Part shown: positions 17,501 through 54,396 of the stretch, piece by piece
How positions within the stretch are numbered: the stretch's first letter is position 1
Layout of the letters: every line of letters starts with the position of its first letter
NCBI GenBank assembly: GCA_963782055.1
Contig: CAWAIF010000003.1
Span: 320,001-384,000 of the forward strand
Length of the DNA stretch: 64,000 nt
Reading direction: 5' to 3'
Origin: an uncultured delta proteobacterium
GTDB lineage: Bacteria > Myxococcota_A > Polyangia > Polyangiales > Polyangiaceae
The notes under the pieces: model-generated
The model's database searches: none
Seen by the model: the letters and a program-made list of their open reading frames with translations, nothing else
Told to the model about the DNA's origin: nothing
Translations under genes and position numbers: made by a program

Positions 17501-20500
17501 CGGCGAAGAGCTCGGGCAGCGGCGCGAACTCGCCGGCGGCCTCCAGCAGCGCGGCGAGGCGCTCGGTCGCCTCGCGATCGTAAGGAGCGACCTTGCGGAT
17601 GCGCTCGTAGAGCTTGCGCGCGTTCTTGACGTCGCCGGACTGCTCCGCGTGCCCGGCGGCGTCGCGCCACGCCGCCACCGCCGCCGCCGTGTCGCCGCGC
17701 TCGGTGTGCAGGGCGCCGAGGCGCGAGAGCCAGAAGACGCGGTCCTCCGCGGTCTCGGCGAGCTCGGCGCGTCGCGCCGCGGCCATCCCCATCAGCTCGC
17801 CGTCGTCCAGGCGCTCCGCGACCTGCTCGACCACGTCGATCTCCCCGCTCCCGTTGAGCGGGTCCTCCAGAAGCGCGCGGCAGTGCGCCGTCGCGCGGTC
17901 GCGCAGGCCGTGCTCCGCCGCCACCGTGGCCACCCGCGCGTGCAGCGTGCGCTCGGCGTCGCCCGGCGGAGTGCGCGACAGGCGCTCCTCCAGCAGCGCG
18001 CAGATCTCCACCCAGCCGCCGGTCTTGCCGTAGACGTCGAGCAGCGCCTCCTCCACGGCGTCGGTCGGTCCCTCGGTCATCGCGGTCCGCAAGGTGGCCA
18101 CCGCGCTCGCGTCGTCGCCCAGCTCGTGGCGCTGGATGTTGGCGATCGCCATGAGCAGCCCGCGGCGCTTCTCGGTCCCCTGCTCGCGCTCCAGCGCGGC
18201 CGCGTAGAGCCGGAGCCGATCCTGCGGCGTGCCCTGCTCGCGGAGCAAAAGCTCCACGCTGGCGAGGAGGTCCGGGCCGGGGGCGAAGGCGAGCGCGCGC
18301 TGGTAGGCGGAGAGGGCGAGCCCCTGGTCTCCGGCCAGCGTGGCGGCGTCGCCCGCGGCCCGCGCGATGGCCAGTCGCGTGTCGTCGGTCACCGGGCCGT
18401 CGCCCAGCGCCTGGAAGAGCACCTCCGCGCGCCGGGGGGCGTCGGACGCTTGACCGAGGAGGCGGCCGAGCTGCTCGATCCAGGGCGACGGGTCCTGCGC
18501 CTCCGCCACGGCGATGGACAGCGCGTGGCGGAGCAGGTCGGTGGCGCGCCCCTGTTCGCTGGGCACCTGCTCGGCGATGGTGACGGCCTCGCGGATGGCG
18601 TGCAGCCGCTGCCCCGCATCGTCGGCGCGCGTGGCCACGGTGGAGAGCGCGCGGATCACGCCCGTCCGCGAGGCCTCCGTCCGGTACACCGCCTCCAGCG
18701 TCTCCGCCGCGGCGAGCGCGGTCTGATCGTCCTGCGAGGCGAGCAGCTTCTCCAGCGCGCCGCGGCTGCTGCGCTCGGTGGGGTCCGCCTCCAGGGCCGC
18801 GCGGAAGGCCTCGACCGCGCCAGCCACGTCGCGGCGGCCCTGCAGGCGCAGCGCGCCCAGCCGCCCGAGCGCCTCCGCCTTCTCGGTGCCATCGGAGAGG
18901 TCGGCGAGCGCGGCGAGCGCGCGGCTCATGCCCTCGAAGTCGCCCTGTAGCTCCAGCAGCGGGAGCCAGCGCTCCACGACCTCGCGCGTGGGGCCGAAGC
19001 GGTCGACGATGTCCGCCCACGCTTGCGCCGCGTCCGCCACGTTGCCCGAGGCCTCGGTGAGCGCCTCGGCGGCGCGCGTCATCAAAACGCGCTGCTCGTC
19101 CGGCGCGGTGCAGTCCTCGGCGCTAAGCCGGAGCACGCGCGCCAGGCCGATCGCGTCGCCCATCGAGGAGAGCAACGGCGCGAGCGCCTCGAGCGCGCGC
19201 GGTCGCGCCGGCGTGTCGAGCAGGGCCTGCCAGGCCCCGATGGCGCGCGCCGGGTCGTTGAGCGGGCCGGTCGCCAGGGTGGCGAGTTGCTCGCCGGCCG
19301 ACTGCCGCCGCACCAGGTCCGGATCGCCGCGCACCACGCGCTCGAGCATGTCTGCCAGCGAGACGTGGTCCTCGTCCTCGGCGTACAGCCGCGCGAGCGC
19401 GTGTGCCGCGGGGAGCGTCGCCACCTCGTCGACGCCGGGCACCGAGAGCGCGCTGGAGAAGGCGGCGCGGGCGCGCTTCATGTCGCCGGTGGCGAGGAGT
19501 AGCTCGCCCATCTCGGTGGCCAGACGCGCGCGAGCCCCAGGCTCCTTGGTCACGCCGATGAGGCGTCCCAGCGTGCGGGTGGAGTTGTCGTGCTTGCCCA
19601 GCGCGCGCGTGAGGGACACGTAGCGCTCGAGCAGGTCGGTGTCGGAGGCGTCCAGGGCCAGCGCGGCGTCTGCCGACTCGTACGCGCCGTGCGGGTCGTC
19701 CAGGTGGTCCTGGCGGATCGCCGTCAGCCCCTTGAGCGCTGCGGCGCGGTGGGTGCCCCGCGCGTGCTCCAGCTCCAGGGTGAGGAAGCGCGCGGCGTCC
19801 GCCCAGGCGCCTTGCGCCTGCGCCGCGCCGGCCAGGGCGGCCGCGGCGCGCGCCGCCGCCGTCCGCGACTCCAGCAAGGCGAGCGCCGCGTCGCGCGCGG
19901 CGGCGTGCTCCGGCTCGCGCGCGAGCAACCACTCGACGTGGGGCAGCGCGCGCTCCGGCTCGCCCGCCTCGGCGTAGATGCCGAGCAGGCGTGTCCGCAG
20001 CTCCACCTGGGCGTCGTCCTCGGGTGGCGGGTCCGCCGCGAGGTCCTGCTCCAGCAGCCTGGCCATGTCCTTCGGCCGGTTGGCGCGGAGCAGCGCCCCC
20101 TCGAGCCGCGCGCGCGACTCTCCGTCGGACGGCTCGATGCGCACGAGCTGTGCGAGGACGTCGGCGACGCGGTCCTGCGCGTCGGCCTGCTCGAACGCCG
20201 AGAGCGCCTTGCGCAGCAGCTCCGTCTGCTCGGCGCGCGGGCGGTGACCGGCGAGCTCCGCGAAGAACTCGCCGAGGCGCAGGAAGTCGCCCGTCTTGAC
20301 GAGCTGCGTCTCCAGCCGGCCGATGGCGCCCGTGTGGGTGGGCATCGCGGTCATGGCGCGGTCGAGGTAGCTCGCCGAGCCCATGTCGTCGCCGAAGACG
20401 TCGCCGAAGAAGACGGCGGCCTGGAACATGAACTCCGCCACCACGCCCGCCTGCAGCGTGCGGATGCGGCGATCCGCCGCGACCTCCTCGAAGGCGAAGG

Positions 20501-20693
20501 CCAGCTCGGCGAGCCGGTCGTCGCGGCGGGCGGCGTCGTGGAGCTTCGACCAGGCCTCGTCGGGGAGCTGCCCGCGCCCGAGGGCGAGGAGAAAGGCGTC
20601 GAGCACCTCCGGCTCTCGGTCGAGCCTCTCTTCGAGAGAGGAGAGGACGGCGGCCAAACCTGCGGTGGCGCGATGGCGAGACTGTTCGGTCAA
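8544..20693 (-). CDS. Giant TPR/alpha-solenoid protein (4049 aa), resembling myxobacterial AgmK-type proteins
   Basis: 12-kb uninterrupted ORF with TTG start after AAGGAG; dozens of TPR-like helical repeats (e.g. A..AY..AL..DP....AL..L..LY....W..L). Confidence 0.88.
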   Translation of the reverse strand: MTEQSRHRATAGLAAVLSSLEERLDREPEVLDAFLLALGRGQLPDEAWSKLHDAARRDDRLAELAFAFEEVAADRRIRTLQAGVVAEFMFQAAVFFGDVFGDDMGSASYLDRAMTAMPTHTGAIGRLETQLVKTGDFLRLGEFFAELAGHRPRAEQTELLRKALSAFEQADAQDRVADVLAQLVRIEPSDGESRARLEGALLRANRPKDMARLLEQDLAADPPPEDDAQVELRTRLLGIYAEAGEPERALPHVEWLLAREPEHAAARDAALALLESRTAAARAAAALAGAAQAQGAWADAARFLTLELEHARGTHRAAALKGLTAIRQDHLDDPHGAYESADAALALDASDTDLLERYVSLTRALGKHDNSTRTLGRLIGVTKEPGARARLATEMGELLLATGDMKRARAAFSSALSVPGVDEVATLPAAHALARLYAEDEDHVSLADMLERVVRGDPDLVRRQSAGEQLATLATGPLNDPARAIGAWQALLDTPARPRALEALAPLLSSMGDAIGLARVLRLSAEDCTAPDEQRVLMTRAAEALTEASGNVADAAQAWADIVDRFGPTREVVERWLPLLELQGDFEGMSRALAALADLSDGTEKAEALGRLGALRLQGRRDVAGAVEAFRAALEADPTERSSRGALEKLLASQDDQTALAAAETLEAVYRTEASRTGVIRALSTVATRADDAGQRLHAIREAVTIAEQVPSEQGRATDLLRHALSIAVAEAQDPSPWIEQLGRLLGQASDAPRRAEVLFQALGDGPVTDDTRLAIARAAGDAATLAGDQGLALSAYQRALAFAPGPDLLASVELLLREQGTPQDRLRLYAAALEREQGTEKRRGLLMAIANIQRHELGDDASAVATLRTAMTEGPTDAVEEALLDVYGKTGGWVEICALLEERLSRTPPGDAERTLHARVATVAAEHGLRDRATAHCRALLEDPLNGSGEIDVVEQVAERLDDGELMGMAAARRAELAETAEDRVFWLSRLGALHTERGDTAAAVAAWRDAAGHAEQSGDVKNARKLYERIRKVAPYDREATERLAALLEAAGEFAPLPELFAALVESAPGAEERKLSLMRLAQVLLERANDPAGAFDAAARAFLEAPSDPEALALLTRYALTSGEKTAYFRTLDTALERGGDQDPALRSRVWAARAEVLAEDPAHQTDALAALRAVVDDPFSEAGAKHHAADVCESILTRAQTPDADAWRWLLGWRAAQASTPQDRHAVIGRWARLEEGLLRAPDQALALWGQLSDANPEDADAASEVARLTLAAGDVDGALASLRSRLAYGDDDQKRRVRAELAGVLLAQGDRAGEALAELRGVLAEAPDHAGALRLLSKLLEDPAVGREASALLESSLESAHDAEAKMRVLSALVDGAKDAPKERRRGWFEELLELSRSQSEDAVYTVLLRAVAEFPEEAAFWDRAEQLARRLDRPVELGERYQAVLAGGHETELALEVGQRAVAFQEEWFEDAAGLIRILDRLVDLDPAGWAFDRLKLLYDSQERWDELFILYDRVIAAEGLDEIRHTDLLEDAAQVAKDFAKNAPRAIGYLEQLLNIKPDNERLIASLERLYERHGRHRELISLLGAQLPGKPEEEGQALRGRMARLWLDELSDAGSALLVVEDLIQHGDEGDNSLELLERILGAAPQGEAIKKTLPPTSSPVSERVSAAYESIAPRASSPPRASAPPKTARGRKRVLVRQRTASLLRERYAAAGRESDLARMLEVELEAVKNAKERMRRHRELAALYERLSENLLALEHCVSLVMLEPDAAAHREHLAALAEKTQRFDRFAEVLAAAADDCDSDELRASLLFQSGVVQSEKLGDDARAAELFFRVLALPVEDAVLLGAARRLDALLRDQGRDAERLGVLERIAELETDSAARKEALGEAADLATRIGEVDRAVAAWEGRLQGEESDLEALIGLVDLLQAQGRFGPLADALDRRARVLAAAERTHESREDRVRAARVQAENLGADGDAVASWESIERDFGEADDASEALAALYDARQEHAKLASTLERAAVRAHDEERRAALLVRLGDLLREHLERHDEAIRAYAQALHATPAHPGAIAGLDALLGREGSAEAAVRVLLESYRAGDDWQRILELLPHRLHVAKDDAERVKVLLEVVEMAEQRAGDLPRAFEAARDAFVLSAGDATIEDEAAGLAEPTGQWRAYADAHRVVIDTLEPQLPAGDERLLRLRYRLGEALEARLDDPRAALTAYLRVAADDPTSEAAGLAAIRTAARVQRWEAAARVAVDRSMLAGAPDEVLFAALETAASGPSAWDAVTSALEAELAERTGRTAPPGGEDQPPAALGGPVARDLEARLGAWHRDRRGDADAAEAAYTRALVHDPTSADVLRALAQLQRRNAGRPLIDSLLRLSQATGGDLDLLKEAAEVASAVVVDRSLAKTILERLIKVASDRWLGRDGDEPPMTLGSPAHPNEYVEWALAELLRIHNEEGAAERIVELLEQTAQLPFTGGRSRVLRHEAADVALSRLGDHDTAMRIWRALFDDEPRDASAAAHLGELYASLGKTDELLDLRQRQLAIAEDPAQRVELRLDAAGILRSLERVDEAIAALKQNLAEVPRDARSTLVLSEVLEQAGRWEELASFCAEQAALAEKDADPLSAVELWVRAATIADEKLADLGAALASYRRALALEVRPEALDAVARIHERREEWEEAAQHLDRLVREFPERQGAVVVRLADAYVRAGDDAAAQQRLEASLGVPDVPAEAAVHLAEIYERTEQWLPLAELTSARAASASESPQKLAFYKEAANLFMERCELPARAVPLLEAAAELAPDDRRLKLTLAEALQGAGRPDDARALLRAMIDAFAGRRPKGRAQVHFYLARIQLRAGERAHALTELEAATRIDPANPEILRMVAELARDDGQLEKAERSYRALLAVLRRADDDAPVLRSEVLVELSDVAGRQGEAERSAEILESAFEAAATSAAESRSLERALRKKGKHEALVRALEARLARTPQGPQAGEIIGELARVQESLGQTAEALATQLRALGVAPGAPAVHEATLALARRAGALSVYVDHALELADGAGKDARLATLLCLRAADALGELGDGARRIEVLRRAEQAGGLRMEVLSALDRAHGEAGDTEAQEAVLEKLAALQTENTARDPRAAADVLYRLAGLRLARPETTADACRMLETALSLAPDMERALGLAESALAAFGDEAPGPLLSVFARVARASGNEDAVARAVLLQAGQPGAPPDVVREAVGLAMSRGESAVAERFLARAAEDEAQDPAFLRWALLELAALREAAGERRGALLLRLRASAHAEAEEARALREQVASAARGEPGDADLAARAYELILDADPTDAQARGELVAVLRDAGDDARLAAAIDRVLPHADSDEERATLRLLRAKVLASRPDRADEAKADLRALLEERPRDAEAAALLVSLLEASGETEELAELLGTQLDAAKDREDAATVAALSLRLGRMLEPKDAEAARQAYAAGLDWEQHNRDLLLAMLRLLRESGDAIERADVMERLLASETGPGAEALALELAALRAEQWDNDAAERALLMGLRAHPASETLRDRLRATYEERGDDQKLAELLVTTAPGLEGAERRAAYLEAARLYGAGDDRTGTARAVRAAWLDAPDDAELLGMLVEAMSAREDLEEALQDMAEPFAQAGGAPHELVLLELRARLTSGLARHEEAIADAERVHALDVGRGAALLAMVLAAAADAAEGPDRAELRRRLATLLAAQGRGEEARAALEENLSADAGDLASLRALAELEEASEQWGAAADAYGRLAEAADAEALPDLALHLAELCERAENPGYAREALERARAVAPGDERLLHKLAEIYERTGAERELLELYVAEAEAATDPARRFELLLGAGQTLLTKLADAERAAEVLAAAHELKPTDFECVGLLADARIALGRLDGAEEALKAAVLSLKGRRSKDLAHVYLRLAHVARARGDRAAETQMLTTGLDMDGQNGVVASELADVAYEDENLDLATRALRAITMMRTAAPLPRAIAYERLGAIAVKQGDTRRAVMLLKRAIDDDPSLEYARELLAQLGA

Positions 20694-33118: not shown

Positions 33119-34774
33119 TCACCCCTTCCGGCGGATCCCCCACAGCATCCACGCGCCGAGCACGAAGCTCGCCGCGCCCCCGATCCCCGCCAGCGCGGGC
33201 CAGAAGGGGAAGCCGAGGAGCCGGCCGTTCGCGGTCACGCCGTGGAGGAACATCGCACCAGCGATGCCCACCATGCCCAGCGCGCAGAGGCACGTCGCGA
33301 GGACCATGCCGGCGACGTCCCGGCGCGTGTCGGGATCGAGGCGCTGCTCGACGCGCGTGGTGAGCTTGCCCGCGTCCAGGCGGCCGAGCACGCGGTGCGC
33401 GAGGGGCGGGATGTCGATGAGCACGTCCTCCATCGCGACGAGGCGCAGGGCGACCTCCTGCGCGAGCTCTCTCGGGCTGAGCAGGCTCTTGCCCAGCTCC
33501 GGCGCGAACTCGCGGAAGACGACCGAGACGTCCAGGTCGGGCGACAGCGTGCGGATGGATCCCTCGAGGGTGCCGAAGGTCTTGTCCAGCAGCACCAGGT
33601 CCGGCTGGTAGTAGAGCTTCTCCTCCCGCAGGAAGTCGATGAGCGCCTCGCTCTGCTGCGCCAGCGAGGTGCTGCCGCCGCGCAGGGTGCGGAAGAGCTC
33701 GCGCAGGCGGCGCGAGAGGTGGAGCAGGTCGACGTCGTAGTCGACCACGCCGTGCTGCAGCAGCGCCCGCGCCAGGGCGTCGTAGTCGCGTCGCGCCATG
33801 GCGATGGCGATCGCCCGGAGCATCTGCATGGTCTGCCGGTCGAAGCGACCGACCATGCCGAAGTCGATGAGGGCGAGGCGCTGATCGCCCTGCACCAGGA
33901 GGTTGCCGGGGTGCGGGTCGGCGTGGAAGAGGCCGTCGTGGAAGACGGTGTGGAGCGTCACGCGCGAGATGAGCTCGGCGAGCTTCTTGCGGTCGTAGCC
34001 GCGGTCCTTGATGACGTCGATGTCGCTGACCTTCACCCCGTCGAAGTACTCCATGGTGAGCACGCGGCGCGCGGTGTGGTCCCAGTGCACCTCCGCGACG
34101 CTCACGCCGTCGAACGTCTCCAGGTTCTTGCGGAACTCCTCGGTCAGGTGCGCCTCGGTGGTGAAGTCAATCTCCCGCATGATGGAGCGGTCGAACTCCT
34201 GCACCAGCAGCACCGGGTCGGCCATCTCGGCGATGGAGGTGAGGCTGCGCGCCAGGCGGGCGAAGTCGTAGAGGATGGAGAGGTCGGCGCGGATGGTCGC
34301 CTCGATGCCCGGCCGCTGCACCTTCACGGCCACGCGGGTGCCGTCCTCGAGCGTGGCGCGGTGCACCTGGCCGATGCTCGCGGCCGCGAGCGCCTCCTCC
34401 TCGAAGTCGGCGAAGAGCTCGCCGAGCGGCTTGCCAAGCTCCTCCTCCACGGTCTTCTTGATCTCGGCGAAGGGCACGGGCGAGACGTGGTCCTGCAGCT
34501 TCTTCAGCTCGGCGATGTAGTCGCGCGGGATCATGTCCGGGCGCGTCGAGAGGATCTGTCCGAGCTTCACGAAGGTCGGTCCCAGGTCCTCCAGGTACGC
34601 GCGGATGCGCTCAGGCATCGTCATCGCGTGGCTCGCCTCGCTGGGTTTCGCGGCGTCCCCGCTGGGCAGCAGCCGGCTCAGCCCGACCTTGTCGAAGAAC
34701 CAGCCGAAGTCGTGCTTCGCGCCCAGCGCGACGATCTGCGCGTAGCGCTTGTACCGTGAGACCTCCTCGGACAT
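33119..34774 (-). CDS. ABC1/AarF/UbiB-family atypical kinase
   Basis: LGPTFVKLGQILSTRPD, AAASIGQVHRA, VAVKVQRPG, FHADPHPGN, IDFGM; C-terminal TM segments. Confidence 0.93.
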   Translation of the reverse strand: MSEEVSRYKRYAQIVALGAKHDFGWFFDKVGLSRLLPSGDAAKPSEASHAMTMPERIRAYLEDLGPTFVKLGQILSTRPDMIPRDYIAELKKLQDHVSPVPFAEIKKTVEEELGKPLGELFADFEEEALAAASIGQVHRATLEDGTRVAVKVQRPGIEATIRADLSILYDFARLARSLTSIAEMADPVLLVQEFDRSIMREIDFTTEAHLTEEFRKNLETFDGVSVAEVHWDHTARRVLTMEYFDGVKVSDIDVIKDRGYDRKKLAELISRVTLHTVFHDGLFHADPHPGNLLVQGDQRLALIDFGMVGRFDRQTMQMLRAIAIAMARRDYDALARALLQHGVVDYDVDLLHLSRRLRELFRTLRGGSTSLAQQSEALIDFLREEKLYYQPDLVLLDKTFGTLEGSIRTLSPDLDVSVVFREFAPELGKSLLSPRELAQEVALRLVAMEDVLIDIPPLAHRVLGRLDAGKLTTRVEQRLDPDTRRDVAGMVLATCLCALGMVGIAGAMFLHGVTANGRLLGFPFWPALAGIGGAASFVLGAWMLWGIRRKG

Positions 34775-34877
34775 GGGCTGAAGTTACAGGGGAATGGTCG
34801 AGCCCGCACCCCTTGCGCCCCTCGTCGGCTCCCATCGTTCGCCGACCCGCCGTCGCGGGCGGCCGGAGGATCTCTAC

Positions 34878-35162
34878 ATGTCGATGCAGTCTCAGCCGCA
34901 CCACCACGAGAGCCGCAGGGCCGTCCATCAGGGCGCCGTCCTGCTCGATGTCCGCACGCGCGCGGAGTTCCACGCCGGGCACCTGCCCGGCGCCGTCAAC
35001 ATCCCGGTCGACGAGCTCCACGGTCGCGCCCACGAGCTGCGCGCGCGCTCGGCGGCGGTGGTGGTGTACTGCCGGTCCGGGGGGCGCAGCGCGACGGCGG
35101 CGTCGGTGCTGCGCGGACACGGCTACACCGTGTTCGACCTGGGCGCGATGCACAACTGGTGA
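34878..35162 (+). CDS. Single-domain rhodanese-like sulfurtransferase
   Basis: GGAGGA RBS before ATG 34878; LLDVRT..EF..GHLPGAVNIP, VVYCRSGGRS. Confidence 0.9.
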   Translation: MSMQSQPHHHESRRAVHQGAVLLDVRTRAEFHAGHLPGAVNIPVDELHGRAHELRARSAAVVVYCRSGGRSATAASVLRGHGYTVFDLGAMHNW

Positions 35163-35230
35163 TTGGCGCCACGCGGCCCCCGCTGGCCGTCCGGATGGAA
35201 CCGCGATAGCCTCCTTGAATGGGAGGTCCG

Positions 35231-35512
35231 ATGAAGCGCCGCAAGCGATTTGCATTCGTCCCGCGGTCGGTGATCGGGGCGAGCTTCGGCGCGGTGGTGC
35301 CCGCGATCGCGCTCTGGGGCCTGGAGGCCTGCTCGAGCAGCGGGCCGGTCATCGGCGTGGCAGGGGTCGCCTACTGCTGCTTCGAGGCCGGCGTGGCGGC
35401 CGACGCGTTCGGCGGCGACGCCTCCGATGGCGGCGACGCGCAGGGCGACGCCCAGGCTGCCGACGCCCAGGACGCGGCGGACGCACCCGGCGACGCGCCA
35501 GGGGACGGATGA
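35231..35512 (+). CDS. 93-aa lipoprotein-like peptide, candidate precursor A1
   Basis: GGAGGT RBS; basic N-terminus, hydrophobic stretch, LEAC; core GVAGVAYCCFEAGVAADAF; acidic Asp/Ala/Gly tail. Confidence 0.8.
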   Translation: MKRRKRFAFVPRSVIGASFGAVVPAIALWGLEACSSSGPVIGVAGVAYCCFEAGVAADAFGGDASDGGDAQGDAQAADAQDAADAPGDAPGDG

Positions 35513-35793
35513 AGAGGCCGACGCGCGCCAAGCGCCCCCGCGTGGTCCCCGGCCTGGTGCTCAGCGCCGGGTTCCTCGGCGTCGTCCCTGCCTGCGCGAT
35601 GGTCGCCTGCGGCGGGACGGAGGTCTCCACCAAGGACGGGGGCACCGACGCCGCGCCCGACCAGTTCCTCGGCGTGGGCGCGGTGGCGTACTGCTGCTTC
35701 GACGCCAGCGTCGCCGTGGTCGGCTTCGACGCCGAGGCCGACGCCGCTGACGCCAGCGACGGCGAGCCGGGCGACGCCGCCGACGGAGGCTGA
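35509..35793 (+). CDS. 94-aa lipoprotein-like peptide, candidate precursor A2 (paralog of A1)
   Basis: ATGA overlap with A1; hidden at the 3' end of track ORF 34756..35793. MKRPTRAKRPRVVPGLVLSAGFLGVVPACAMVAC...GVGAVAYCCFDASVAVVGF, acidic tail. Confidence 0.8.
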   Translation: MKRPTRAKRPRVVPGLVLSAGFLGVVPACAMVACGGTEVSTKDGGTDAAPDQFLGVGAVAYCCFDASVAVVGFDAEADAADASDGEPGDAADGG

Positions 35794-35799
35794 GCGGGC

Positions 35800-36633
35800 G
35801 TGCGGATCCGGCGCGTGCTCACCAACACGCCGCTCGCGCGCGTGCACGAGCGCACCATCCTGCAGCGCGGCCCGCGCAAAGGGACCGCGGTACCGTGGGC
35901 GTCCTTCCGCCGCGAGCGCTACCCCGCTCCGGCGCTCGCCCTGTCATACGACGCGCAGCGCATGCTCGCGCTCGGCGAGTACTCCGCGGTCAGCCTCTTC
36001 GCCCGCTTCGTCGACGGTCTGACGCGCGCCGCCGCACCGTTCGACCTCGTCTCCGCCGCGGCGCGCGTGCCGAGCGACGAGATCCGCCACGCCGACCTCG
36101 CCTTTCGCTTCGCCGCGCTGTGCGCCGGCCGGGAGGTGTCGGTGGAGGCGGGCAAGCAGCACATGACCTCGCGCTTCGACGGCGCCATGAGCCTCGACGA
36201 GCTCGACGACTTCGCCGTCGAGGTCATCGCCGTCGGCGAGACGCTCGCGTGCGCGCTGCTCTCCGCGTGCCTGGAGGGCGCGAAGGATCCCGTGGCCCAC
36301 GCGGTCTACTCCAACATCGTCGCCGACGAGGTGCACCACGCCCGCCTCGGCTGGTACTACCTTCTCTGGCGCGCCCCGCAGTGGACGGGGGCGGAGCGCC
36401 AGCGCGTCGCCGACCACGCCGGGGGGATCGTCGCGCAGGTGGAGACGCGCTTCGCCACGGGGCGCGACGCGCCGCGCGGGGCGCAGAAGGCGGCCCGCAG
36501 CCTCGGCGTGCTGGACACCGCGCGCCAGCGCAAGGTCGTCGCCGGCGTGATGGCGCGCGAGATCGTGCCGGGGCTGGACGGCCTGGGCCTTGGCGCCTCG
36601 CACGCGTGGCGGGTCCGGAAGCGCATCGCGTGA
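35800..36633 (+). CDS. Ferritin-like di-iron carboxylate protein
   Basis: Two E...ExxH ligand sets: LGEYSA...SDEIRHA and VGETLA...ADEVHHA. Confidence 0.82.
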   Translation: MRIRRVLTNTPLARVHERTILQRGPRKGTAVPWASFRRERYPAPALALSYDAQRMLALGEYSAVSLFARFVDGLTRAAAPFDLVSAAARVPSDEIRHADLAFRFAALCAGREVSVEAGKQHMTSRFDGAMSLDELDDFAVEVIAVGETLACALLSACLEGAKDPVAHAVYSNIVADEVHHARLGWYYLLWRAPQWTGAERQRVADHAGGIVAQVETRFATGRDAPRGAQKAARSLGVLDTARQRKVVAGVMAREIVPGLDGLGLGASHAWRVRKRIA

Positions 36634-38033
36634 CGTCGGTGCGAGCCGCACGCCCGGTGGTGATCGGCGCCTCGCTGGTGTGTCTCGGCCGCCCCCTCCG
36701 GCCGCGTGAGCGCGAGAGGCTCCGCGCGTACCTGCGGCGTGCGCTGGCGTGGCAGCGCCGCCTACGCGGATTCCCCGCCCCCATGAGCGTCGCGCCCGAC
36801 GCCACCCCCTACGTCTCCATCTACGCGAGCGGCGCGCTTCGCGGTTGCTACGGCACGCAGGAGGGCGCTGCGGGCGAGCGGGTGGCGCGGGCGGTGCTGC
36901 TCGCCCTCCACGACAGACGCTACGGCGGCATCGCGCCGGCCGAGCGGGCGCACCTGGACGCCGAGATCGCGTACGTCACCGGGGCGCGACCCGCCCGCGC
37001 CGACGAGGCGGAGGCGAGGCTCGAGCCGGGCGTGCAGGGCGTCGCGCTCGCGGAGGGCGGCGCCGCGACGCTTCTGCTGCCGTCGGTCGCCAGGGAGCAC
37101 GGACACGACGCGCGCGCCACGCTCGACCTGCTCGCGCGCAAGGCCGGATACGAAGGTGGGCTCGGCGGCGAGGGTCTGGTCTGGATCGTCGACGTGGAGG
37201 CGGTGTCGACCCACGGCGCCGTCGCGCGGGATGCGAGGGTCGCGGCGCGGCGGTGGCTGGAGTCGCTCGTCGCCGTCGATGGCGCCCTCGCCTTCGAGCG
37301 CGTGCCCGGCTCCGGCGCGCGCGTCGCGAGCGGTCTCATGCGGCACGGGCGGATCGCCGTCGCGGTGGAGGCGCTCGCCGCGCTGCGCTCGCCGAAGGCG
37401 GGGCGCGCACGGGACTGGCTGGCGCGAGAGATCGCGCGCGGGCTGCGCCGTCCTTCGGACGTGCTCGGCTGGCCGGAGCGCGCCGACATGACGCTGGGCA
37501 CGCTCGCCCTCGCCGCGCGCGCCGGTGTGGCGGTGCCGCTGGCGGAGGCGGCGGCCGCTGCCGACCCGGCCACGGTGTCGCCGTGGCACGCCGCGCAGGT
37601 CGCGGCCACGCTGGGGACCAAGACCCCGACCGCCCTGTGGGAGCGCTGCGTCGCCGACCTGGAGGCCCGGCCCTTCGCGCCGTACCTGACGATGGCCGCG
37701 CGGCGGCGGGGGGACGCGCGTGTGCTCGAGCGCACGGCCGGAGCGCTTGAGGCGGCGCTGTCCGCCGAGGCCCCCTTCGCCGGCGGCGCCCACGTCACGC
37801 CCGTCCCCGAGACGGCGCTGACTGCCGTCGCCGTGGAGGCGCTCGCCGGTCTGCCCACGCGCGAGGCGCGGCGGGCCGTCGTCCGGGGTCGCGCCTTCCT
37901 CGCCGCGCGGCAGGTGCTCGACGTGCCCGCCGCGATGCACCCGAGCGCGCTCGGCGCCTTCCGCGCCTCCCCCGTCGCCCCGATCCTGCGCTGTGACGTC
38001 ACCGCGCACGCCGCGCTCGCGTGCTTCGGCTAG
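36630..38033 (+). CDS. AMMECR1-domain + alpha/alpha-barrel fusion protein (copy 1)
   Basis: GTGA overlap. YVSIYASGALRGCYG, DRRY, LEPGVQGV, LLLPSVA..., LARKAG match AMMECR1; helical C-terminal half ends FLAARQ...GAFRASP...LRCDVTAH. Confidence 0.8.
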   Translation: MTSVRAARPVVIGASLVCLGRPLRPRERERLRAYLRRALAWQRRLRGFPAPMSVAPDATPYVSIYASGALRGCYGTQEGAAGERVARAVLLALHDRRYGGIAPAERAHLDAEIAYVTGARPARADEAEARLEPGVQGVALAEGGAATLLLPSVAREHGHDARATLDLLARKAGYEGGLGGEGLVWIVDVEAVSTHGAVARDARVAARRWLESLVAVDGALAFERVPGSGARVASGLMRHGRIAVAVEALAALRSPKAGRARDWLAREIARGLRRPSDVLGWPERADMTLGTLALAARAGVAVPLAEAAAAADPATVSPWHAAQVAATLGTKTPTALWERCVADLEARPFAPYLTMAARRRGDARVLERTAGALEAALSAEAPFAGGAHVTPVPETALTAVAVEALAGLPTREARRAVVRGRAFLAARQVLDVPAAMHPSALGAFRASPVAPILRCDVTAHAALACFG

Positions 38034-38072
38034 CCGGCGAACCGGTTGGGCCGCTCGTCGGCTCCCACAGGC

Positions 38073-38906
38073 ATGTGCGAGCTGCTGGCCATGTCGGCGC
38101 GGTTCCCGACGACGCTGCGTCTCTCGCTCGACGAGCTGGCGCGGCACGGCGGCGGGACCGGCCCGCACGCGGACGGCTGGGGCATCGCGGCGATCCAGGA
38201 CGGCGACGCCTTCGTCATCCGCGAGCCGGAGGCCGCCCACGGCAGCGCCTGGGTGCGCCTCTTCGAGGAGCGGGAGGTGCGCTGCGCCTCCGCCATCGCC
38301 CACGTCCGCAAGGCGACGCAGGGCGCGCGCGCGCTGCGCAACACGCAACCCTTCGCGCGGGAGCTGGGCGGCAGCATGCACGTCTTCGCCCACAACGGGA
38401 TGCTCTCCGGCATCGAGACGGACCCGCGCTTCGTCTCCCGGCGCTTCCGGCGCGTCGGGGAGACGGACTCGGAGCACGCGTTCTGCGCGCTGCTCGAGCG
38501 CCTCGCCCCGCTCTGGGAGGAGGGCACGCCCTCGGTCGACGCGCGCGTGCACGTGATGACCTCCTTCGCCGCGGACCTGCGGGCGCTCGGCCCGGCGAAC
38601 TTCCTGTACTCCGACGGCGAGCTGCTCGTGGCGCACGGCCACAAGCGGCACCACCCCGACGGCCAGATCCGCGCGCCTGGGCTGCACATCCTCCGGCGAA
38701 GGTGCACCTGCGTCGAGGACGCGGTGCCCCGCGGCGCCGGGGTGAATGGCGGCGAGGACGCCGGGCGCGACGCGCTCCAGTCGGTCGCGCTGATCGCGAG
38801 CGTCCCGCTCAGCGCCGAGCCGTGGGAGCCGCTCGGCGAGGGCGACGTGGTGGTCCTCCGCGGGGGGAGCCCGATTCTGCGCGTGCCGGCCCGCGCCGCC
38901 GCGTGA
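38073..38906 (+). CDS. Class II glutamine amidotransferase-like Ntn-hydrolase (YafJ/EgtC-type)
   Basis: Met-Cys start MCELLAM; HADGWG, IAHVRKAT, NTQPF, FAHNG, GETDSE. Confidence 0.92.
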   Translation: MCELLAMSARFPTTLRLSLDELARHGGGTGPHADGWGIAAIQDGDAFVIREPEAAHGSAWVRLFEEREVRCASAIAHVRKATQGARALRNTQPFARELGGSMHVFAHNGMLSGIETDPRFVSRRFRRVGETDSEHAFCALLERLAPLWEEGTPSVDARVHVMTSFAADLRALGPANFLYSDGELLVAHGHKRHHPDGQIRAPGLHILRRRCTCVEDAVPRGAGVNGGEDAGRDALQSVALIASVPLSAEPWEPLGEGDVVVLRGGSPILRVPARAAA

Positions 38907-38966
38907 CATAGTTCCCCCCGAACGGAGAAGGCATGACCACCCCCGAGGATTCTACGCACCGCCACC

Positions 38967-39947
38967 ATGAAGCAGGCGCAGGGCGCCATGGCGCTGGACG
39001 TCGCCTTCGTCGGCGTCGTCAACCGCCTCTTCGAGGCGCTCGCGTCCGGCGACCAGACGGCGCCCGCGCTCGCGGAGCGGGCGAAGGTGGACGCCGGCTA
39101 CGTGGAGCGCTGGTGTCAGGCGGCGTACGCCTTCGGCTACCTGGAAGCACACGAGGGCCGCTTCGGCCTCTCCGAGCCGGGCCGCGCCTTCCTGCCCGAC
39201 GCGCCGGGGTCGCTGATGCCCTTCGCGGTCGGCGCGGTGCTGGGCGCGCACATGGCGGAGCGCGCCGCCGGGCTGATGCGAACCGGCGAGCGCCCAGGGG
39301 AGAGCGTGCTCGCCGAGCGGGAGACCATCCTCCCGTGGTTCGGCCCGATGCTGGAGTCCACCTTCGGCGCTCTCTTCGAGCGAGAGGTCCTGCCGAACGT
39401 GCCGGCGTTCGGCGAGCTGGACGCGCGCGGCGGCGTCGCGGTCGATCTCGGCTGCGGTAACGGCTGGTACCTGCGCAAGCTGGCGAAGCGCTTCCCGCAC
39501 GTGCGCGGCGTCGGCCTGGACGGCTTCGAGGAGAACGTCCGCCAGGCGAGCGAGCGCGCCCGCGCGGAGGGGCTCGGCGATCGCCTGCGCTTCGTCGCGG
39601 GGGACATCTACCACTACACCGTCGGCGAGCCGGCGGACCTCATCGCGATGAACCGCGCCCTGCACCACGTGTGGGATCAGAAGGAGCGCGTCTTCGGCAT
39701 CCTGCGCGACACCCTGCGCCCTGGCGGCGTGGCGGTCATCTGGGAGCCGGCGTGGCCCGCCGACCTCACCGCGCTGCGCGATCCTCGCCGCCGGGCGATG
39801 GCCTTCCAGAACCTGAACGAGCACGTGCAGGGCAACCACTTCCTGCGCCCGGACGAGATCGAGGCGGCCTTCCGCGCCGTCGGCATGCAGGCCTCCACCC
39901 ACCTCTTCGTCGAGGGCACCGAGGCGGTCGTGGTGGCGCGCCGCTGA
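38967..39947 (+). CDS. Class I SAM-dependent methyltransferase with N-terminal wHTH
   Basis: VDLGCGNG, YVERWCQAAY. The true start is probably ATG 38933 with a 1-nt frameshift (see findings). Confidence 0.88.
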   Translation: MKQAQGAMALDVAFVGVVNRLFEALASGDQTAPALAERAKVDAGYVERWCQAAYAFGYLEAHEGRFGLSEPGRAFLPDAPGSLMPFAVGAVLGAHMAERAAGLMRTGERPGESVLAERETILPWFGPMLESTFGALFEREVLPNVPAFGELDARGGVAVDLGCGNGWYLRKLAKRFPHVRGVGLDGFEENVRQASERARAEGLGDRLRFVAGDIYHYTVGEPADLIAMNRALHHVWDQKERVFGILRDTLRPGGVAVIWEPAWPADLTALRDPRRRAMAFQNLNEHVQGNHFLRPDEIEAAFRAVGMQASTHLFVEGTEAVVVARR

Positions 39948-50673: not shown

Positions 50674-52593
50674 ATGCCTCGATGGACGGACGCGCCGATG
50701 TCGCTCGCGTGGCGAACGCGATGGGTCGAAGGCATGCGCGCGCGCTTCGCGGACGAACCCGCGCTCGACCGGACGCTCTCGTGGATCCGGACGATCGCGC
50801 TGGAGGACGACGCGTTCGTCCTGGCGACGGCGAGGGGCCGCGGCGTGTTCGGGTTTCCGTTCCCGTCTCGGCCCGGGCAGCGTCCGGAGCGCCTGGCGCT
50901 CGGCGAGGAGGACGCGCGCGTGCGGTTCGTCGTGCGCGCGGGGGAGGCGGCGCGCGGAGGGCGCGCGGGCGGAGACGCAGCGCCCGGGTGGAGACCGATC
51001 CTGCGCTTCGATGCGCTCTCGGTCTCCGAGCGCGACGCGCCCCACGGAGGCCCGCGCCCGCTGCGGCTCGGCCTGACGGGCGCCGAAGGATGGGCGCTGC
51101 TGCAGGCGGCGCGGGCGGCGGCCGAGGACGTGGTCGCCGGCGGCCCGCCGCCGAGAGAGACGGAGACTCGCGGCGCCGAGCCGCGCCTGTCGCAGCGGAC
51201 GGTGCTCGCGGTCTCGATGTGGACGCGCGGGCGACTGCGCGGGTCGGTCGTGTCCCCGCCCGGGCGTGCGCTCGTGATGGCGCGTCGATCCGGCGAGTGG
51301 GCATGCCAGGACCCGCGCTTCGAACGCCCCACCCTCGCCGAGCTGGACGACACCGTCTTCCAGGTCGGGCTGGTTCATGCGCCGGCCATCCCCCTCTCGC
51401 GCGACGAGATCCGCGAGCGGGACGCCTATCCCGACAAGGCGCTCTTCGTGTCGGAGGGAGCGCGCTTCGGAGCGTACATGCCGGAGGTCTTCAACATCCG
51501 CGCCCCGCGCAAGCTCGCGCCGCTGCTCCGCTCGCTCGCCATAGAGAAAGCCGGGCTCGAGGGGGTCGGCGCCCACACCCGGATCGAGGCGTGTGAGGTC
51601 AGCGAGGTGGTCGAGTCGGCGGACCGCACACGGGCGGTGGCGCTCGACGGCCCGATCGCGCGCGTCGCGGTGGACGAACCGGAGGGCCTGGCAGGCGCGG
51701 CGCGCGCCGCGGGCAGCGCGGCGTGCGCGTGGCTCGTGAGCGTGCAGCAGGAGGACGGCTCGTGGCCGGTGCGGGTGCGACCGGCGACCGGCGAGGGCGA
51801 GGGGCGCGATCCGGTGCGCGTCGCGCTCGTCGCGTTCGCCCTCGCCACCTTCGGCGTCGCCGCGCGGGTCGACGCGGCGCCCCGGGCTGCGAGCCGGGCG
51901 CTCGCCTGGCTCGCGCGCACTCGATCGGAGTGGACCCGCGATCCGGTGCGGGCGCTATGGACGCACTGCTACGTGGGACGGACCGCGACGTGCCTCGATG
52001 AAGCGGATGCGTTCGCGTCGGCCGCGGCGGGCGTACGGGAGGTCGCTCACGCCGCGGCTCGCGATCGGCTGGCCGCGCAGCACGCGGCGTCCTTCTCCCG
52101 CGAAGCCGCGGCGCGAGACGCGGACGCCGCGCGTCGCGCCGGGTCGCTCGGGGGCGCCCTCTACGAGGAGTTTCGCCGCGCGCGGGATGGTGGAAGCCCG
52201 ATGTCGCTCGCCGGGTGGGCGGAGCTCGCGGCAGCCTTCTCGAGCGATTCCCCGCAGGCGCGCGAGATCACCGGTTGGCTGCGCTCCTACCAGCTCCCGG
52301 ACGGCTCCTTCCCCGACACGACGGCGTCGCGATTCGCCTACACGCGTGGTACCGGCAAGGTCTTCGAGGTGCTCGCACGAACGTGCTCCGACGCCGAGCC
52401 CGCGCTCGAGCGTTCACTCGGGTGGCTCCGGACGATGCAGTACCGCCTCGACTCGGTCTTCTTCGTCCCGGAGGAGCACCGCGCGCGCGTGCTCGGCGGC
52501 CTGCGCCACGACGTCTACGACACCGCCGCGTGGGTCGACGCCGCGGGACATCTGCTGATCGGGCTCGCACCCATCGTGCGGAGGCCGTCGTGA
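50674..52593 (+). CDS. AMMECR1-domain + prenyltransferase/squalene-cyclase-like alpha/alpha-barrel fusion protein (copy 2)
   Basis: ATG 50674 or 50698. LLQAARAA...VSMWTRGRLRGS...DPRF...EL...YMPEVF...EKAG match AMMECR1; QW-like repeats WLVSVQQEDGSW, WLRSYQLPDGSF, WLRTMQ; end GGLRHD...WVDAAGH. Confidence 0.8.
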   Translation: MPRWTDAPMSLAWRTRWVEGMRARFADEPALDRTLSWIRTIALEDDAFVLATARGRGVFGFPFPSRPGQRPERLALGEEDARVRFVVRAGEAARGGRAGGDAAPGWRPILRFDALSVSERDAPHGGPRPLRLGLTGAEGWALLQAARAAAEDVVAGGPPPRETETRGAEPRLSQRTVLAVSMWTRGRLRGSVVSPPGRALVMARRSGEWACQDPRFERPTLAELDDTVFQVGLVHAPAIPLSRDEIRERDAYPDKALFVSEGARFGAYMPEVFNIRAPRKLAPLLRSLAIEKAGLEGVGAHTRIEACEVSEVVESADRTRAVALDGPIARVAVDEPEGLAGAARAAGSAACAWLVSVQQEDGSWPVRVRPATGEGEGRDPVRVALVAFALATFGVAARVDAAPRAASRALAWLARTRSEWTRDPVRALWTHCYVGRTATCLDEADAFASAAAGVREVAHAAARDRLAAQHAASFSREAAARDADAARRAGSLGGALYEEFRRARDGGSPMSLAGWAELAAAFSSDSPQAREITGWLRSYQLPDGSFPDTTASRFAYTRGTGKVFEVLARTCSDAEPALERSLGWLRTMQYRLDSVFFVPEEHRARVLGGLRHDVYDTAAWVDAAGHLLIGLAPIVRRPS

Positions 52594-54113
52594 CCGCCGC
52601 CTTCGTCGAGCGCGTGGAGTCCGGGCCGGGACGCCGGGACGTGCCTCTGCCGGTGCGCGAGACGTACTCGCTCTCCGAGCTCTTGCCGAGACGCGCCCCG
52701 GGGGTCGGCTATCGCGTCCCGGGAGAGATGGGGCCCCCGCTGGCGCGCGCGTTCGAGCGGGCGTTCGCGCTCCTCGAGCGCGGCTACGGCCCGCTGTCGG
52801 TGCGCGCCCCGTCCAGGCTGCTCACGCCCCGCTGGTACCGGGTCGTCCGCGCGCTGGCGCGGCACGGGCTCGCCCGGACGCTGACGCTCTCGCTCCCGCA
52901 CGAGCGCGGCATCCCCCTGTACTACTTCGACATCGCCGCGGGGCCCTGCTGGCACGCGACCGACGGCGGGCAGCCCGAGCGCACGCGCTACGGCCGCGGG
53001 GTCTCCGACGACTACGATCACGCGCTGGCCAAGGGCGTGGGCGAGTGCCTCGAGCGCGGCTCCCTGCTCTACTTCCGGATGGCGGACATGATCCGCGGCA
53101 GCGCGCGGTCGCTGCGCGCGCGCGGGCTCCCCTTCGTCGACCCTCGCGCGCTGTCGGTCTTCTCACGGGAGCAGATCGACCGGCGGCCGGCGCTCGCGGT
53201 AGACGACGGCTCGGTGTTCCAGTGGGTGCCGTGCAGGTCGCTCGTGTCGTCGCAGGAGGCGCTCGTGCCGGCGCAGCTCGTGCACTGGAACTACCCGGTC
53301 GGCTGGGGGGACGCTCCGGAGCCCATGCTGCGCGAGCAGAACTCCCACGGCGCGGCCGCGTTCTACTCGCTGGACGGTGCGCTCCTGTCCGGCCTCCTCG
53401 AGTGCCTCCAGCGCGACGGCTTCTTCCGCCACTGGCTCCGCGGGATCGCGCCGCCGCGCATCGCGACCGGCGACGTCACGCGCCCGGCCACCGTGCGCCT
53501 GCTGCAGAGCGCCCGCGACGTCGGGCTGGAGCCGATCTTGCTCGACATCACCTCGCAGCTCGGCGTCCCGACGTGCGTGTGCGTGCTCGCGCGCGACGAC
53601 GGCGAGTCGCCGGCGGTGACGGTGGGCGCGAGCTGTCGGCTCGACGCGGAGAGGGCGATCCACGACGCGCTCCTCGAGGCGGCGAGCGTGCACCACGTCG
53701 TCGCGCAGAGCCCGGAGCGCCTTCGCGCGGCGGCCGGCCGCGATCCGCTCGTGGACGCGTCCTTCGACACCGACCACCGCCTGGCCTTCTGGGCGAACCC
53801 GGAGCACGCGCGCCACCTCGCGTGGCTGCTGGGCGGGGCGACGGAGTCGCTGTCGGACTTCCGTCGCGGGTGGCGTGCGCCCGAGAGCTCGCGCGAGGGG
53901 CTCGAGCGGGTCGTCGAGGTCCTCCGTCGCCATCGCATCGCCGCGTGGTTCCACGAGGTCCGCCACGCCGCGCTCGACGAGCTCGGCTTCGCGGCCGCGC
54001 GCGTGATCGTCCCCGACCTGCTCCCCATGTACTGCGTGGACCGGAACGCGCCGCTCGGTCAGGCGCGCGCGGAGGGCGCCGCGCAGCCACCGTGGCCGCA
54101 CCCCTTTCCGTGA
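52590..54113 (+). CDS. YcaO-family protein
   Basis: GTGA overlap. GECLER, LVPAQLV, NSHGAAA...LLECLQRD, LDITSQLGVP, ALLEA, RVIVPDLLP, C-terminal PWPHPFP. Confidence 0.92.
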   Translation: MTAAFVERVESGPGRRDVPLPVRETYSLSELLPRRAPGVGYRVPGEMGPPLARAFERAFALLERGYGPLSVRAPSRLLTPRWYRVVRALARHGLARTLTLSLPHERGIPLYYFDIAAGPCWHATDGGQPERTRYGRGVSDDYDHALAKGVGECLERGSLLYFRMADMIRGSARSLRARGLPFVDPRALSVFSREQIDRRPALAVDDGSVFQWVPCRSLVSSQEALVPAQLVHWNYPVGWGDAPEPMLREQNSHGAAAFYSLDGALLSGLLECLQRDGFFRHWLRGIAPPRIATGDVTRPATVRLLQSARDVGLEPILLDITSQLGVPTCVCVLARDDGESPAVTVGASCRLDAERAIHDALLEAASVHHVVAQSPERLRAAAGRDPLVDASFDTDHRLAFWANPEHARHLAWLLGGATESLSDFRRGWRAPESSREGLERVVEVLRRHRIAAWFHEVRHAALDELGFAAARVIVPDLLPMYCVDRNAPLGQARAEGAAQPPWPHPFP

Positions 54114-54126
54114 GGTCGCGAGGCGC

Positions 54127-54396
54127 TCAGTCCGTCCCGGCGTCGTAGTAGGGGGCCTCGATGATCGGGCCGGTGTCGCTCCCCCCGTCGAAGTAGGGGG
54201 CCTCCACGATCACGCCTACGTCGACCGGTGCGTCCTTGGGCTGATCGGTGGAGGCATCGGCCGCGGGCCCCGTCGTCGCCCCGCCGCAGCTCGCGACACC
54301 GGCCGTGATGAGGAGCGCGAGCCCCCGCTCCCCGACGGCGCGCGCGCCACGCGAGAGACGGTCGACGATGGCTCGCCTGAGACGGGGATCGAGCAT
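54127..54396 (-). CDS. 89-aa lipoprotein-like peptide with a 15-aa tandem repeat, candidate precursor B
   Basis: Lipobox VASC; DVGVIVEAPYFDGGS / DTGPIIEAPYYDAGT. Confidence 0.75.
   Translation of the reverse strand: MLDPRLRRAIVDRLSRGARAVGERGLALLITAGVASCGGATTGPAADASTDQPKDAPVDVGVIVEAPYFDGGSDTGPIIEAPYYDAGTD

Follow-up and report, generated by a model that had tools for sequence, protein, structure and literature searches.

A ferritin-like protein gene paired with double-proline, lipoprotein-like peptides in Polyangiaceae: a candidate lipidated RiPP cassette

The window, that is, the whole 64,000-nucleotide stretch of DNA that was analysed, contains two short precursor-like genes, A1 and A2. Both are real, coupled ORFs and head a cassette with two larger genes, B and C. 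The features of the cassette are as follows.

35222..35226, + strand: Shine-Dalgarno-like GGAGG ahead of A1 (sequence)
35231..35512, + strand: precursor A1, 93 aa; basic n-region, double-Pro hydrophobic leader, lipobox-like LEA/C34, core, and Asp/Gly/Ala-rich tail
35258..35302, + strand: A1 leader block V10-P11 ... V22-V23-P24, predicted to dock on B; residues 9-27 lie in the predicted interface
35330..35332, + strand: A1 Cys34, candidate diacylglycerol attachment site, invariant in alignment A3
35354..35410, + strand: A1 core GVAGVAYCCFEA, made of two V[AG]xxx[FY] units that overlap, and second unit VAADAF; residues 44-54 lie in the predicted interface
35509..35793, + strand: precursor A2, 94 aa; leader at 35545-35589, lipobox-like MVA/C34 at 35608-35610
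35671..35727, + strand: A2 core GVGAVAYCCFDA and second unit VAVVGF (sequence, pN/pS)
35800..36633, + strand: B, 277-aa ferritin-like dimetal-carboxylate protein with E60, E94xxH97, E147 and E177xxH180; predicted maturation enzyme
36630..38033, + strand: C, 467 aa; fusion of an AMMECR1 domain (RGCYG and DRRY motifs) and an (alpha/alpha)6 barrel; its start overlaps the end of B as GTGA

The ATG of A2 overlaps the stop codon of A1 as ATGA, B begins 6 nt after A2 behind a GGAGG held in the last codons of A2 (35785-35789), and the start of C overlaps the end of B. Because of these overlaps and spacings, the four genes look translationally coupled. A2 is masked in ORF lists by a longer open frame of 345 codons, which starts at 34756 and whose 3′ end A2 forms; its standing as a separate ORF, proposed in an earlier sequence-only reading of this DNA, is supported. 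GC3 is 0.89 for A1 and 0.96 for A2, like that of the neighbouring genes. No sigma-70-like promoter or terminator was found in 34700-38200. Two soil metatranscriptomes yielded a single identical 188-nt contig within B (36151-36338), which may be DNA and was not taken as a sign of expression, and none over A1/A2.

As that reading also described, A1 and A2 keep a leader and a core block in common: a VP...V[VI]P leader, Cys34 at an AC, the core GV[AG][GA]VAYCCF[ED]A, and a second VAxxxF nine residues on. V10, P11 and P24 of A1 are invariant in alignment A3. Throughout the 7.58-Mb genome, read in six frames, VAYCC occurs in A1 and A2 only. A leader HMM likewise exceeds 20 bits at these two alone among 80,727 six-frame segments, and of the 482 ORFs in the genome that a heuristic marks as lipoprotein-like, the two with the double-proline leader are again A1 and A2. 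The leader is therefore not generic. Pfam and NCBIfam give no family name for A1, A2 or B, and NCBIfam none for four homologous precursors or three paralogous enzymes.

The cassette was followed across 116 B loci (6, plus the best 80 of 123, plus 30), from which 14 with identical B were removed to leave 102. A leader-bearing ORF adjoins the start of B at 70 of the 72 unique loci with at least 700 nt upstream (the misses are L012 and L057), a count that is partly circular, the leader HMM having been seeded from the same loci. The precursor gene is in this way tied to the gene of a predicted cytoplasmic enzyme, B, whose enzymatic role is putative. At least two precursors precede B at 17 of the 72 loci. 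Two further leader-bearing ORFs lie on the opposite strand and outside the precursor count, one about 400 nt upstream of B (L042) and the other about 1450 nt from its start (L104). C follows B at 63 of 84 loci with at least 400 nt downstream. Within the family, B occurs in 34 of 251 genomes, including 5 of the 6 others of the genus, and C in 29 of 251, all of them among the 34 with B; B was not found in 277 genomes of other families (phylum sample, E<=1e-40).

The genes around the cassette are not shared. Matches to the flanking rhodanese, UbiB, GATase and methyltransferase were absent from every locus but the window's own, among 66 loci with at least 1.5 kb upstream and 27 with at least 2.6 kb downstream. 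In the window, a co-oriented rhodanese gene lies upstream (34878-35162, +), and genes for a class-II glutamine amidotransferase and a methyltransferase, also co-oriented, lie downstream (38046-39947, +). Further away, a 4049-aa TPR-repeat protein adjoins glycyl-tRNA synthetase alpha (8547-20693, -). The cassette contains no protease or exporter gene, and no gene for a reductase, ferredoxin or other oxygenase subunit.

This distribution bears on the plainest explanation of A1 and A2, that they are ordinary low-complexity myxobacterial lipoproteins that chance to precede B. Lipoprotein-like ORFs do number about 482 in the genome, and Asp/Gly/Ala-rich linkers are frequent among them. However, the adjacency persists across B proteins that are 44-100% identical while the flanking genes change, the leader occurs in the genome at the window's locus only, leader and core are under selection, and the genes look translationally coupled. 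Chance juxtaposition is thus already largely refuted and must be considered extremely improbable.

Of 104 unique precursors, 101 were analysed, three being left out as truncated or N-containing. Their leader follows [KR]n-x-x-[FILV]-V-P ... [GAT]-V-[VI]-P-[AL]-C, with the first proline present in 101/101, the second in 99/101, and 13-15 residues between the two in 91/99. At least two K/R residues form a basic n-region in 98/101, and the best 11-residue Kyte-Doolittle mean is at least 1.75 in 101/101. The candidate lipobox Cys, picked by a rule of our own, sits at position 23-46, after A/G/S in 99/101 and before G/S in 84/101; in agreement with the sequence-only reading, such a Cys follows the basic and hydrophobic region in every precursor. 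The double-proline leader and a lipobox-like Cys are thus family-wide. A strict lipobox is written [LVI][ASTVI][GAS]C, and this pattern is found in 26/101 precursors and in neither A1 (LEAC) nor A2 (MVAC).

Export through the Tat pathway was also considered. The twin-arginine motif of that pathway is RRx[FGAVML][LITMVF], which is present in 10/101 precursors and absent from A1 and A2. Tat export is thereby ruled out as a family feature, and the Tat/SPII route, which the sequence-only reading had named as an alternative to Sec/SPII, is unlikely.

The non-canonical lipoboxes, together with two prolines within the h-region and a leader that is predicted to be buried on B, raise the question of whether the peptides are lipidated at all. 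The N-terminal segment could be an enzyme-binding leader only, in a true RiPP whose product is released by a host protease. The nearly universal basic n-region and hydrophobic stretch speak against this, as do the invariance of the Cys, its small neighbours on either side, and the retention of a candidate lipobox Cys in paralogous lipopeptide families. A RiPP without the lipid is accordingly rated as quite unlikely.

The sequence-only reading invoked an enzyme that it did not name; the predicted candidate is B, immediately downstream of A2. No signal peptide or hydrophobic N-terminus is visible in it. Among the 73 of 102 B sequences that were assigned to tree groups, E60, D93-E94-x-R96-H97, E147 and D176-E177-x-x-H180 are invariant, and a third histidine, H179, is kept in 67. 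The structure model (pLDDT 90) is an all-helical ferritin-like bundle. Its nearest solved folds in Foldseek are PaaA/PaaC, aldehyde-deformylating oxygenase, VlmB and R2lox (TM 0.5-0.6, 12-19% identity), with a best E of 1.0e-3 and none at E<=0.001. Weak Pfam matches to DUF455 (22/30) and AurF (14/30) were obtained, and the ESM Atlas placed B near rubrerythrin, AurF, PaaA and desaturase clusters at 0.92-0.95. A PDB sequence search with the B profile returned two designed helical bundles only, and the nearest named relatives of B come from Polyangiaceae MAGs (86% and 74%). Taken together, the fold neighbours of the model, the invariant ligands, the weak family matches and the Atlas clusters identify B, at the level of model and sequence, as a ferritin-like dimetal protein. 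Its centre is likely di-iron, with Mn/Fe as the other candidate.

In one clade of eight loci (L054, L055, L057, L059, L065, L076, L080 and L086), B is 44-49% identical to the window's B and has a His at position 141, where Glu is otherwise found, and a Ser at 146. The precursors of this clade have G[IV]xP-type cores, and C is absent from all seven of its loci with enough downstream DNA.

A physical association between B and its neighbour is predicted by modelling. ESMFold2 gave B with A1(1-64) a score of 0.66, compared with 0.00 for the best control, the controls being unrelated proteins with no other hydrophobic signal peptide among them. In a calibration that is roughly applicable here, where our own alignments were used, 116 of 157 solved complexes attain the mark set for such scores, as do 2 of 215 mismatched pairs. 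At least 81% of contacts agreed between runs, and the partner pLDDT was at least 61. The best-resolved pairs join A1 leader residues 10-24 to W185, Y186, 201-208 and 258-269 of B, positions that are nearly invariant; interface columns of B are more conserved than the others (0.78 vs 0.63). The wider interface lists also include A1 core residues 44-54 and the B ligands E60, E147 and E177, with no core residue among the best-resolved pairs. The A1 leader is thus predicted to dock on the conserved C-terminal surface of B. This is consistent with the proposal, made from the sequence, that the leader serves enzyme recognition as well as export, for it is kept beyond what export needs.

Protein C is less easily placed. 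Its AMMECR1 domain matches PF01871 (E 1e-17) and scores 58.5 bits against TIGR04335, below the 99-bit cut-off; G72, C73, D95 and R97, which belong to the RGChG and DxRa motifs, are invariant in 33/33 sequences. Residues 196-467 form an (alpha/alpha)6 barrel, for which a fold search tied glycosidases, epimerases and terpene cyclases at Z 16-18 and picked no function; the absence of LanC from that listing excludes nothing. Since it is missing from 21 of the 84 loci, C is accessory. Several of the 29 C-bearing genomes have the barrel part only, and around one copy of C (G037:C4) there is neither a B nor a leader for 6 kb. At L105, L110, L112 and L114 (genomes G020, G219, G166 and G072), C is a barrel without the AMMECR1 domain; these loci belong to the clade whose precursors are long and Gly-rich with LAVxGF cores.

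A distant full-length relative of C (probability 92.6%, 383 columns) lies 13 kb away in the window, within 50674-54396. This second AMMECR1-like/barrel protein (to 52593, +), for which 43 homologues were found, has a motif that reads RGSV and lacks the Cys. Beside it are a YcaO gene (to 54113, +) and a lipoprotein-like ORF of 89 aa that runs convergently (54127-54396, -) and contains the repeat I[VI]EAPY[FY]D twice. This AMMECR1-barrel/YcaO locus has no close relative in 250 family genomes.

These data could also be read with the peptide bound by B as a partner, inhibitor or membrane tether and not as a substrate, in which case B would act with C on a small molecule or lipid, like PaaA, ADO or R2lox. 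The solved structures listed as neighbours of B all belong to proteins that have small-molecule substrates or bind fatty acids, the barrel of C resembles terpene cyclases, epimerases and glycosidases, and the strongest predicted contacts involve the leader only. Such a role would nevertheless leave unexplained a selected multi-copy core set between neutral spacers, as well as the family-specific cores of the paralogous pairs described below. On balance, this alternative is judged unlikely.

The core itself is best described by its variation. A Gly/Ala/Asp-rich sequence follows the lipobox Cys in the 101 precursors, and the pattern V[AG]xxx[FY] occurs in 80 of them, up to 11 times, with a total of 287 against a shuffle mean of 17.5 and maximum of 32 (500 shuffles). 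The GVAGVAYCCF of the window is two such units sharing three residues. Relatives have GVAAVAY-PAYE, GVAAVGF-CAF or plain GVAAAGF, and the general core, as judged from sequence, can be written [GST]V[AG]xx[GA][FY], repeated up to 11 times. Uncorrected pN/pS among 11 A1-type orthologues is 0.29 for the leader, 0.13 for the core, 0.83 for the linker and 0.64 for the tail; among 9 A2-type orthologues the values are 0.28, 0.27, 0.54 and 0.71. These ratios indicate that leader and core are under purifying selection within the window's clade, and linker and tail much less so.

The specific elements that the sequence-only reading had singled out do not extend to the family. VAYCCF, taken there as the conserved core, is present in 17/101 precursors and CCF in 29/101; in a quickly built tree of 79 B sequences, VA[YM]CCF is limited to one 13-member clade that includes the window (SH-aLRT 100) and one outlier. 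The 9-residue periodicity holds in A1 and A2 and fails elsewhere: a spacing of 9 accounts for 12 of 259 core intervals, with 7, 8 and 10 commoner, and in the 23 precursors with VA[YM]CCF the next unit lies 9 residues on in 6, 10 residues on in 5 and 11 residues on in 1, while the other 11 have none. Periodicity was thus rejected as a family feature. A universal Cys-Cys site was ruled out as well, because 51/101 precursors have no Cys after the lipobox; 20/101 have neither Cys nor Tyr, so that a cross-link or metal site built on these residues is not a general feature. Phe or Tyr, by comparison, is present in 101/101. Nothing in the core comes near to constancy except a beta-branched residue, the small residues and Phe/Tyr.

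A functional Tyr-Cys-Cys site that forms a cross-link or binds a metal, within a repeat of 9 residues, therefore has to be weighed chiefly for the window's own lineage. CCF is kept in all precursors of that clade and in four loci of another, the core pN/pS of the A1 type is very low, and MNIO DAG-RiPPs modify Cys, some of them binding copper, according to the available text of PMC13056109. Conversely, half of the family lacks the cysteines, the spacing is irregular, and the Tyr is replaced by Met or dropped even within the clade. As an account of the family this is very improbable; a site of this kind could exist restricted to the window's clade, in which the Cys-Cys is a variable part of the core. 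Core type follows the B tree, with 17 changes vs 52.9 after shuffling, where labels were set by regular expression (one known mislabel, L103) on the quick version of the tree. Because kin share labels, this clustering was not counted as co-evolution.

The genome contains 13 ferritin-like matches to the profile of B. Three of these genes stand behind small lipoprotein-like ORFs (G000:C3:6019149, +; C3:4592639, -; C3:3362014, -), and in relatives (L120-L161) the upstream peptide was recovered at 13/20, 5/6 and 12/16 loci of the three subfamilies, two of the remaining loci having less than 130 nt upstream. Each subfamily has its own conserved leader and its own core: [VS][AG]NLxxP repeats, a C-terminal Cys/Trp motif, or [HTV]NA[PT] repeats. 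RiPP precursors and their enzymes pair in just this way, each enzyme subfamily having a single leader and a single core; ordinary lipoproteins do not predict such a pattern. Four other ferritin-like domains are fused in frame behind a lipoprotein-like signal and a Cys-rich region (G000:C2:270337, C2:392473, C3:5134382 and C3:5070114); they are possibly self-modifying versions.

The reading that we favour, with a probability of roughly 0.7, is that A1 and A2 are precursors of a lipoprotein-pathway, DAG-RiPP-like RiPP, whose signal peptide also serves as the leader and whose maturation is carried out by a ferritin-like di-iron enzyme; catalysis, lipidation and the order of steps are what we infer for it. 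The RiPP part is supported by a constant leader, a hypervariable multi-copy core and neutral spacers. In this scheme, B would bind the double-proline signal/leader in the cytoplasm, as the model predicts, and would there oxidise each V-[AG]-x-x-[GA]-[FY] core unit using its two-metal, likely di-iron, centre and O2. C, which is optional, may be a partner or a second tailoring enzyme. Sec export, diacylglycerylation of Cys34 by Lgt and cleavage by signal peptidase II would follow, and would stand in for a protease and exporter; since the lipoprotein pathway would do both, no gene for either is expected in the cassette. Ferritin-like enzymes that activate O2 need electrons, and the missing reductase or ferredoxin gene therefore counts against this reading.

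Assuming a RiPP, the chemistry can be proposed only tentatively. The leading candidate, itself somewhat doubtful, is hydrogen abstraction from the beta-branched residue, which is Val or, for some clades, Ile, leading to hydroxylation, desaturation, or a cross-link to an aromatic residue. Attack at Val C-beta is favoured because the near-constant features of the core include little else. As described in the accessible text of PMC6060897, the ether that R2lox makes between Tyr and Val can also form with Ile in place of Val, and not with Leu or Ala. A universal reactive residue is nonetheless lacking, since 21/101 precursors have no V[AG]xxx[FY] and Phe, found in 256 of 339 core units, cannot form a Tyr-type ether. 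By analogy, oxidation of the Phe/Tyr ring, as in PaaA, would be the next most likely chemistry.

On a broader scale, the cassette may be one branch of a larger myxobacterial radiation. Ferritin-like di-iron enzymes would constitute a new RiPP class by maturing membrane-anchored lipopeptides whose signal peptide is the enzyme's leader as well; every subfamily would have a leader and a repeat core of its own (VAxxGF; [VS][AG]NLxxP; [HTV]NA[PT]; C-terminal Cys/Trp) or a lipopeptide fused to itself, and AMMECR1-barrel proteins would provide a second tailoring step. We hold this wider proposal to be somewhat better than an even bet. If true, it would bring ferritin-like di-iron enzymes into the RiPP toolbox, open a new route to modified membrane peptides, and supply a substrate class for many unannotated "ferritin-like domain" genes of myxobacteria, such as the 13 in this genome. 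The system is small (2-4 genes) and tolerates very different cores behind one leader, and its co-expression in E. coli is feasible. Neither a published account of the cassette nor one of an FDO acting on a RiPP precursor or a separate ribosomal peptide was found in a search of a literature collection with few subscription papers.

Among known enzymes, B resembles PaaA/PaaC, aldehyde-deformylating oxygenase, AurF/VlmB and R2lox in fold and in the ligand set E...ExxH...E...ExxH, and it has the four-helix bundle and the E, ExxH, E, ExxH ligands that define FDOs. It differs from FDO oxygenases in its low identity to them (12-19%) and in a cassette without a reductase or other oxygenase subunit. 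R2lox makes its Tyr-Val ether in its own scaffold (PMC6060897, in the part available), whereas the putative substrate of B is a separate peptide. HDOs, as far as the consulted text of PMC13108848 describes them, are also helical dimetal enzymes that activate O2, an activity predicted for B. That text distinguishes the alpha7 fold and 3His/3carboxylate set of HDOs from the four core helices of FDOs, and it cites ribosomal peptide modification for HDOs only, in one role. The listed structural neighbours of B and its paired ExxH motifs are of the FDO type, yet the third histidine, H179, is kept in most sequences.

C retains the RGChG and DxRa motifs and the putative catalytic Cys of AMMECR1/AmmeMemoRadiSam protein A (PF01871, TIGR04335); these motifs were proposed as an active site in PMC2034487, to judge from its available portion. 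Unlike AmmeMemoRadiSam protein A, C is fused to an (alpha/alpha)6 barrel, has no radical SAM and Memo partners, and is linked to peptide precursors. If this link is true, it would give a bacterial AMMECR1 domain a testable role.

The closest parallel is with the DAG-RiPPs DybA/DybH and NedA/NedBC (PMC13056109, in its accessible text), which likewise combine a short precursor, a lipoprotein-type signal and a lipobox Cys (both putative in the cassette) with an adjacent cytoplasmic non-heme iron enzyme (a predicted role for B), have repeated cores in some members, and need no dedicated protease or exporter. By analogy, the cassette would work like a DAG-RiPP, a class of which it is a candidate member. 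The DAG-RiPP enzyme of that paper is a TIM-barrel MNIO, in contrast to the ferritin-like four-helix bundle of B, and the word "ferritin" has 0 occurrences in its main text, so far as this was available. B is not a TIM-barrel multinuclear iron enzyme and DUF692 has no match among the cassette genes; the cassette is not an MNIO system. It also differs from DAG-RiPPs in that Cys is not required in its core. Finally, lipidated RiPPs are expected to be leader-independent in the available text of PMC13056109, whereas the signal peptide of the cassette appears to double as leader, an arrangement which that paper thought unlikely and which, if true, would be new.
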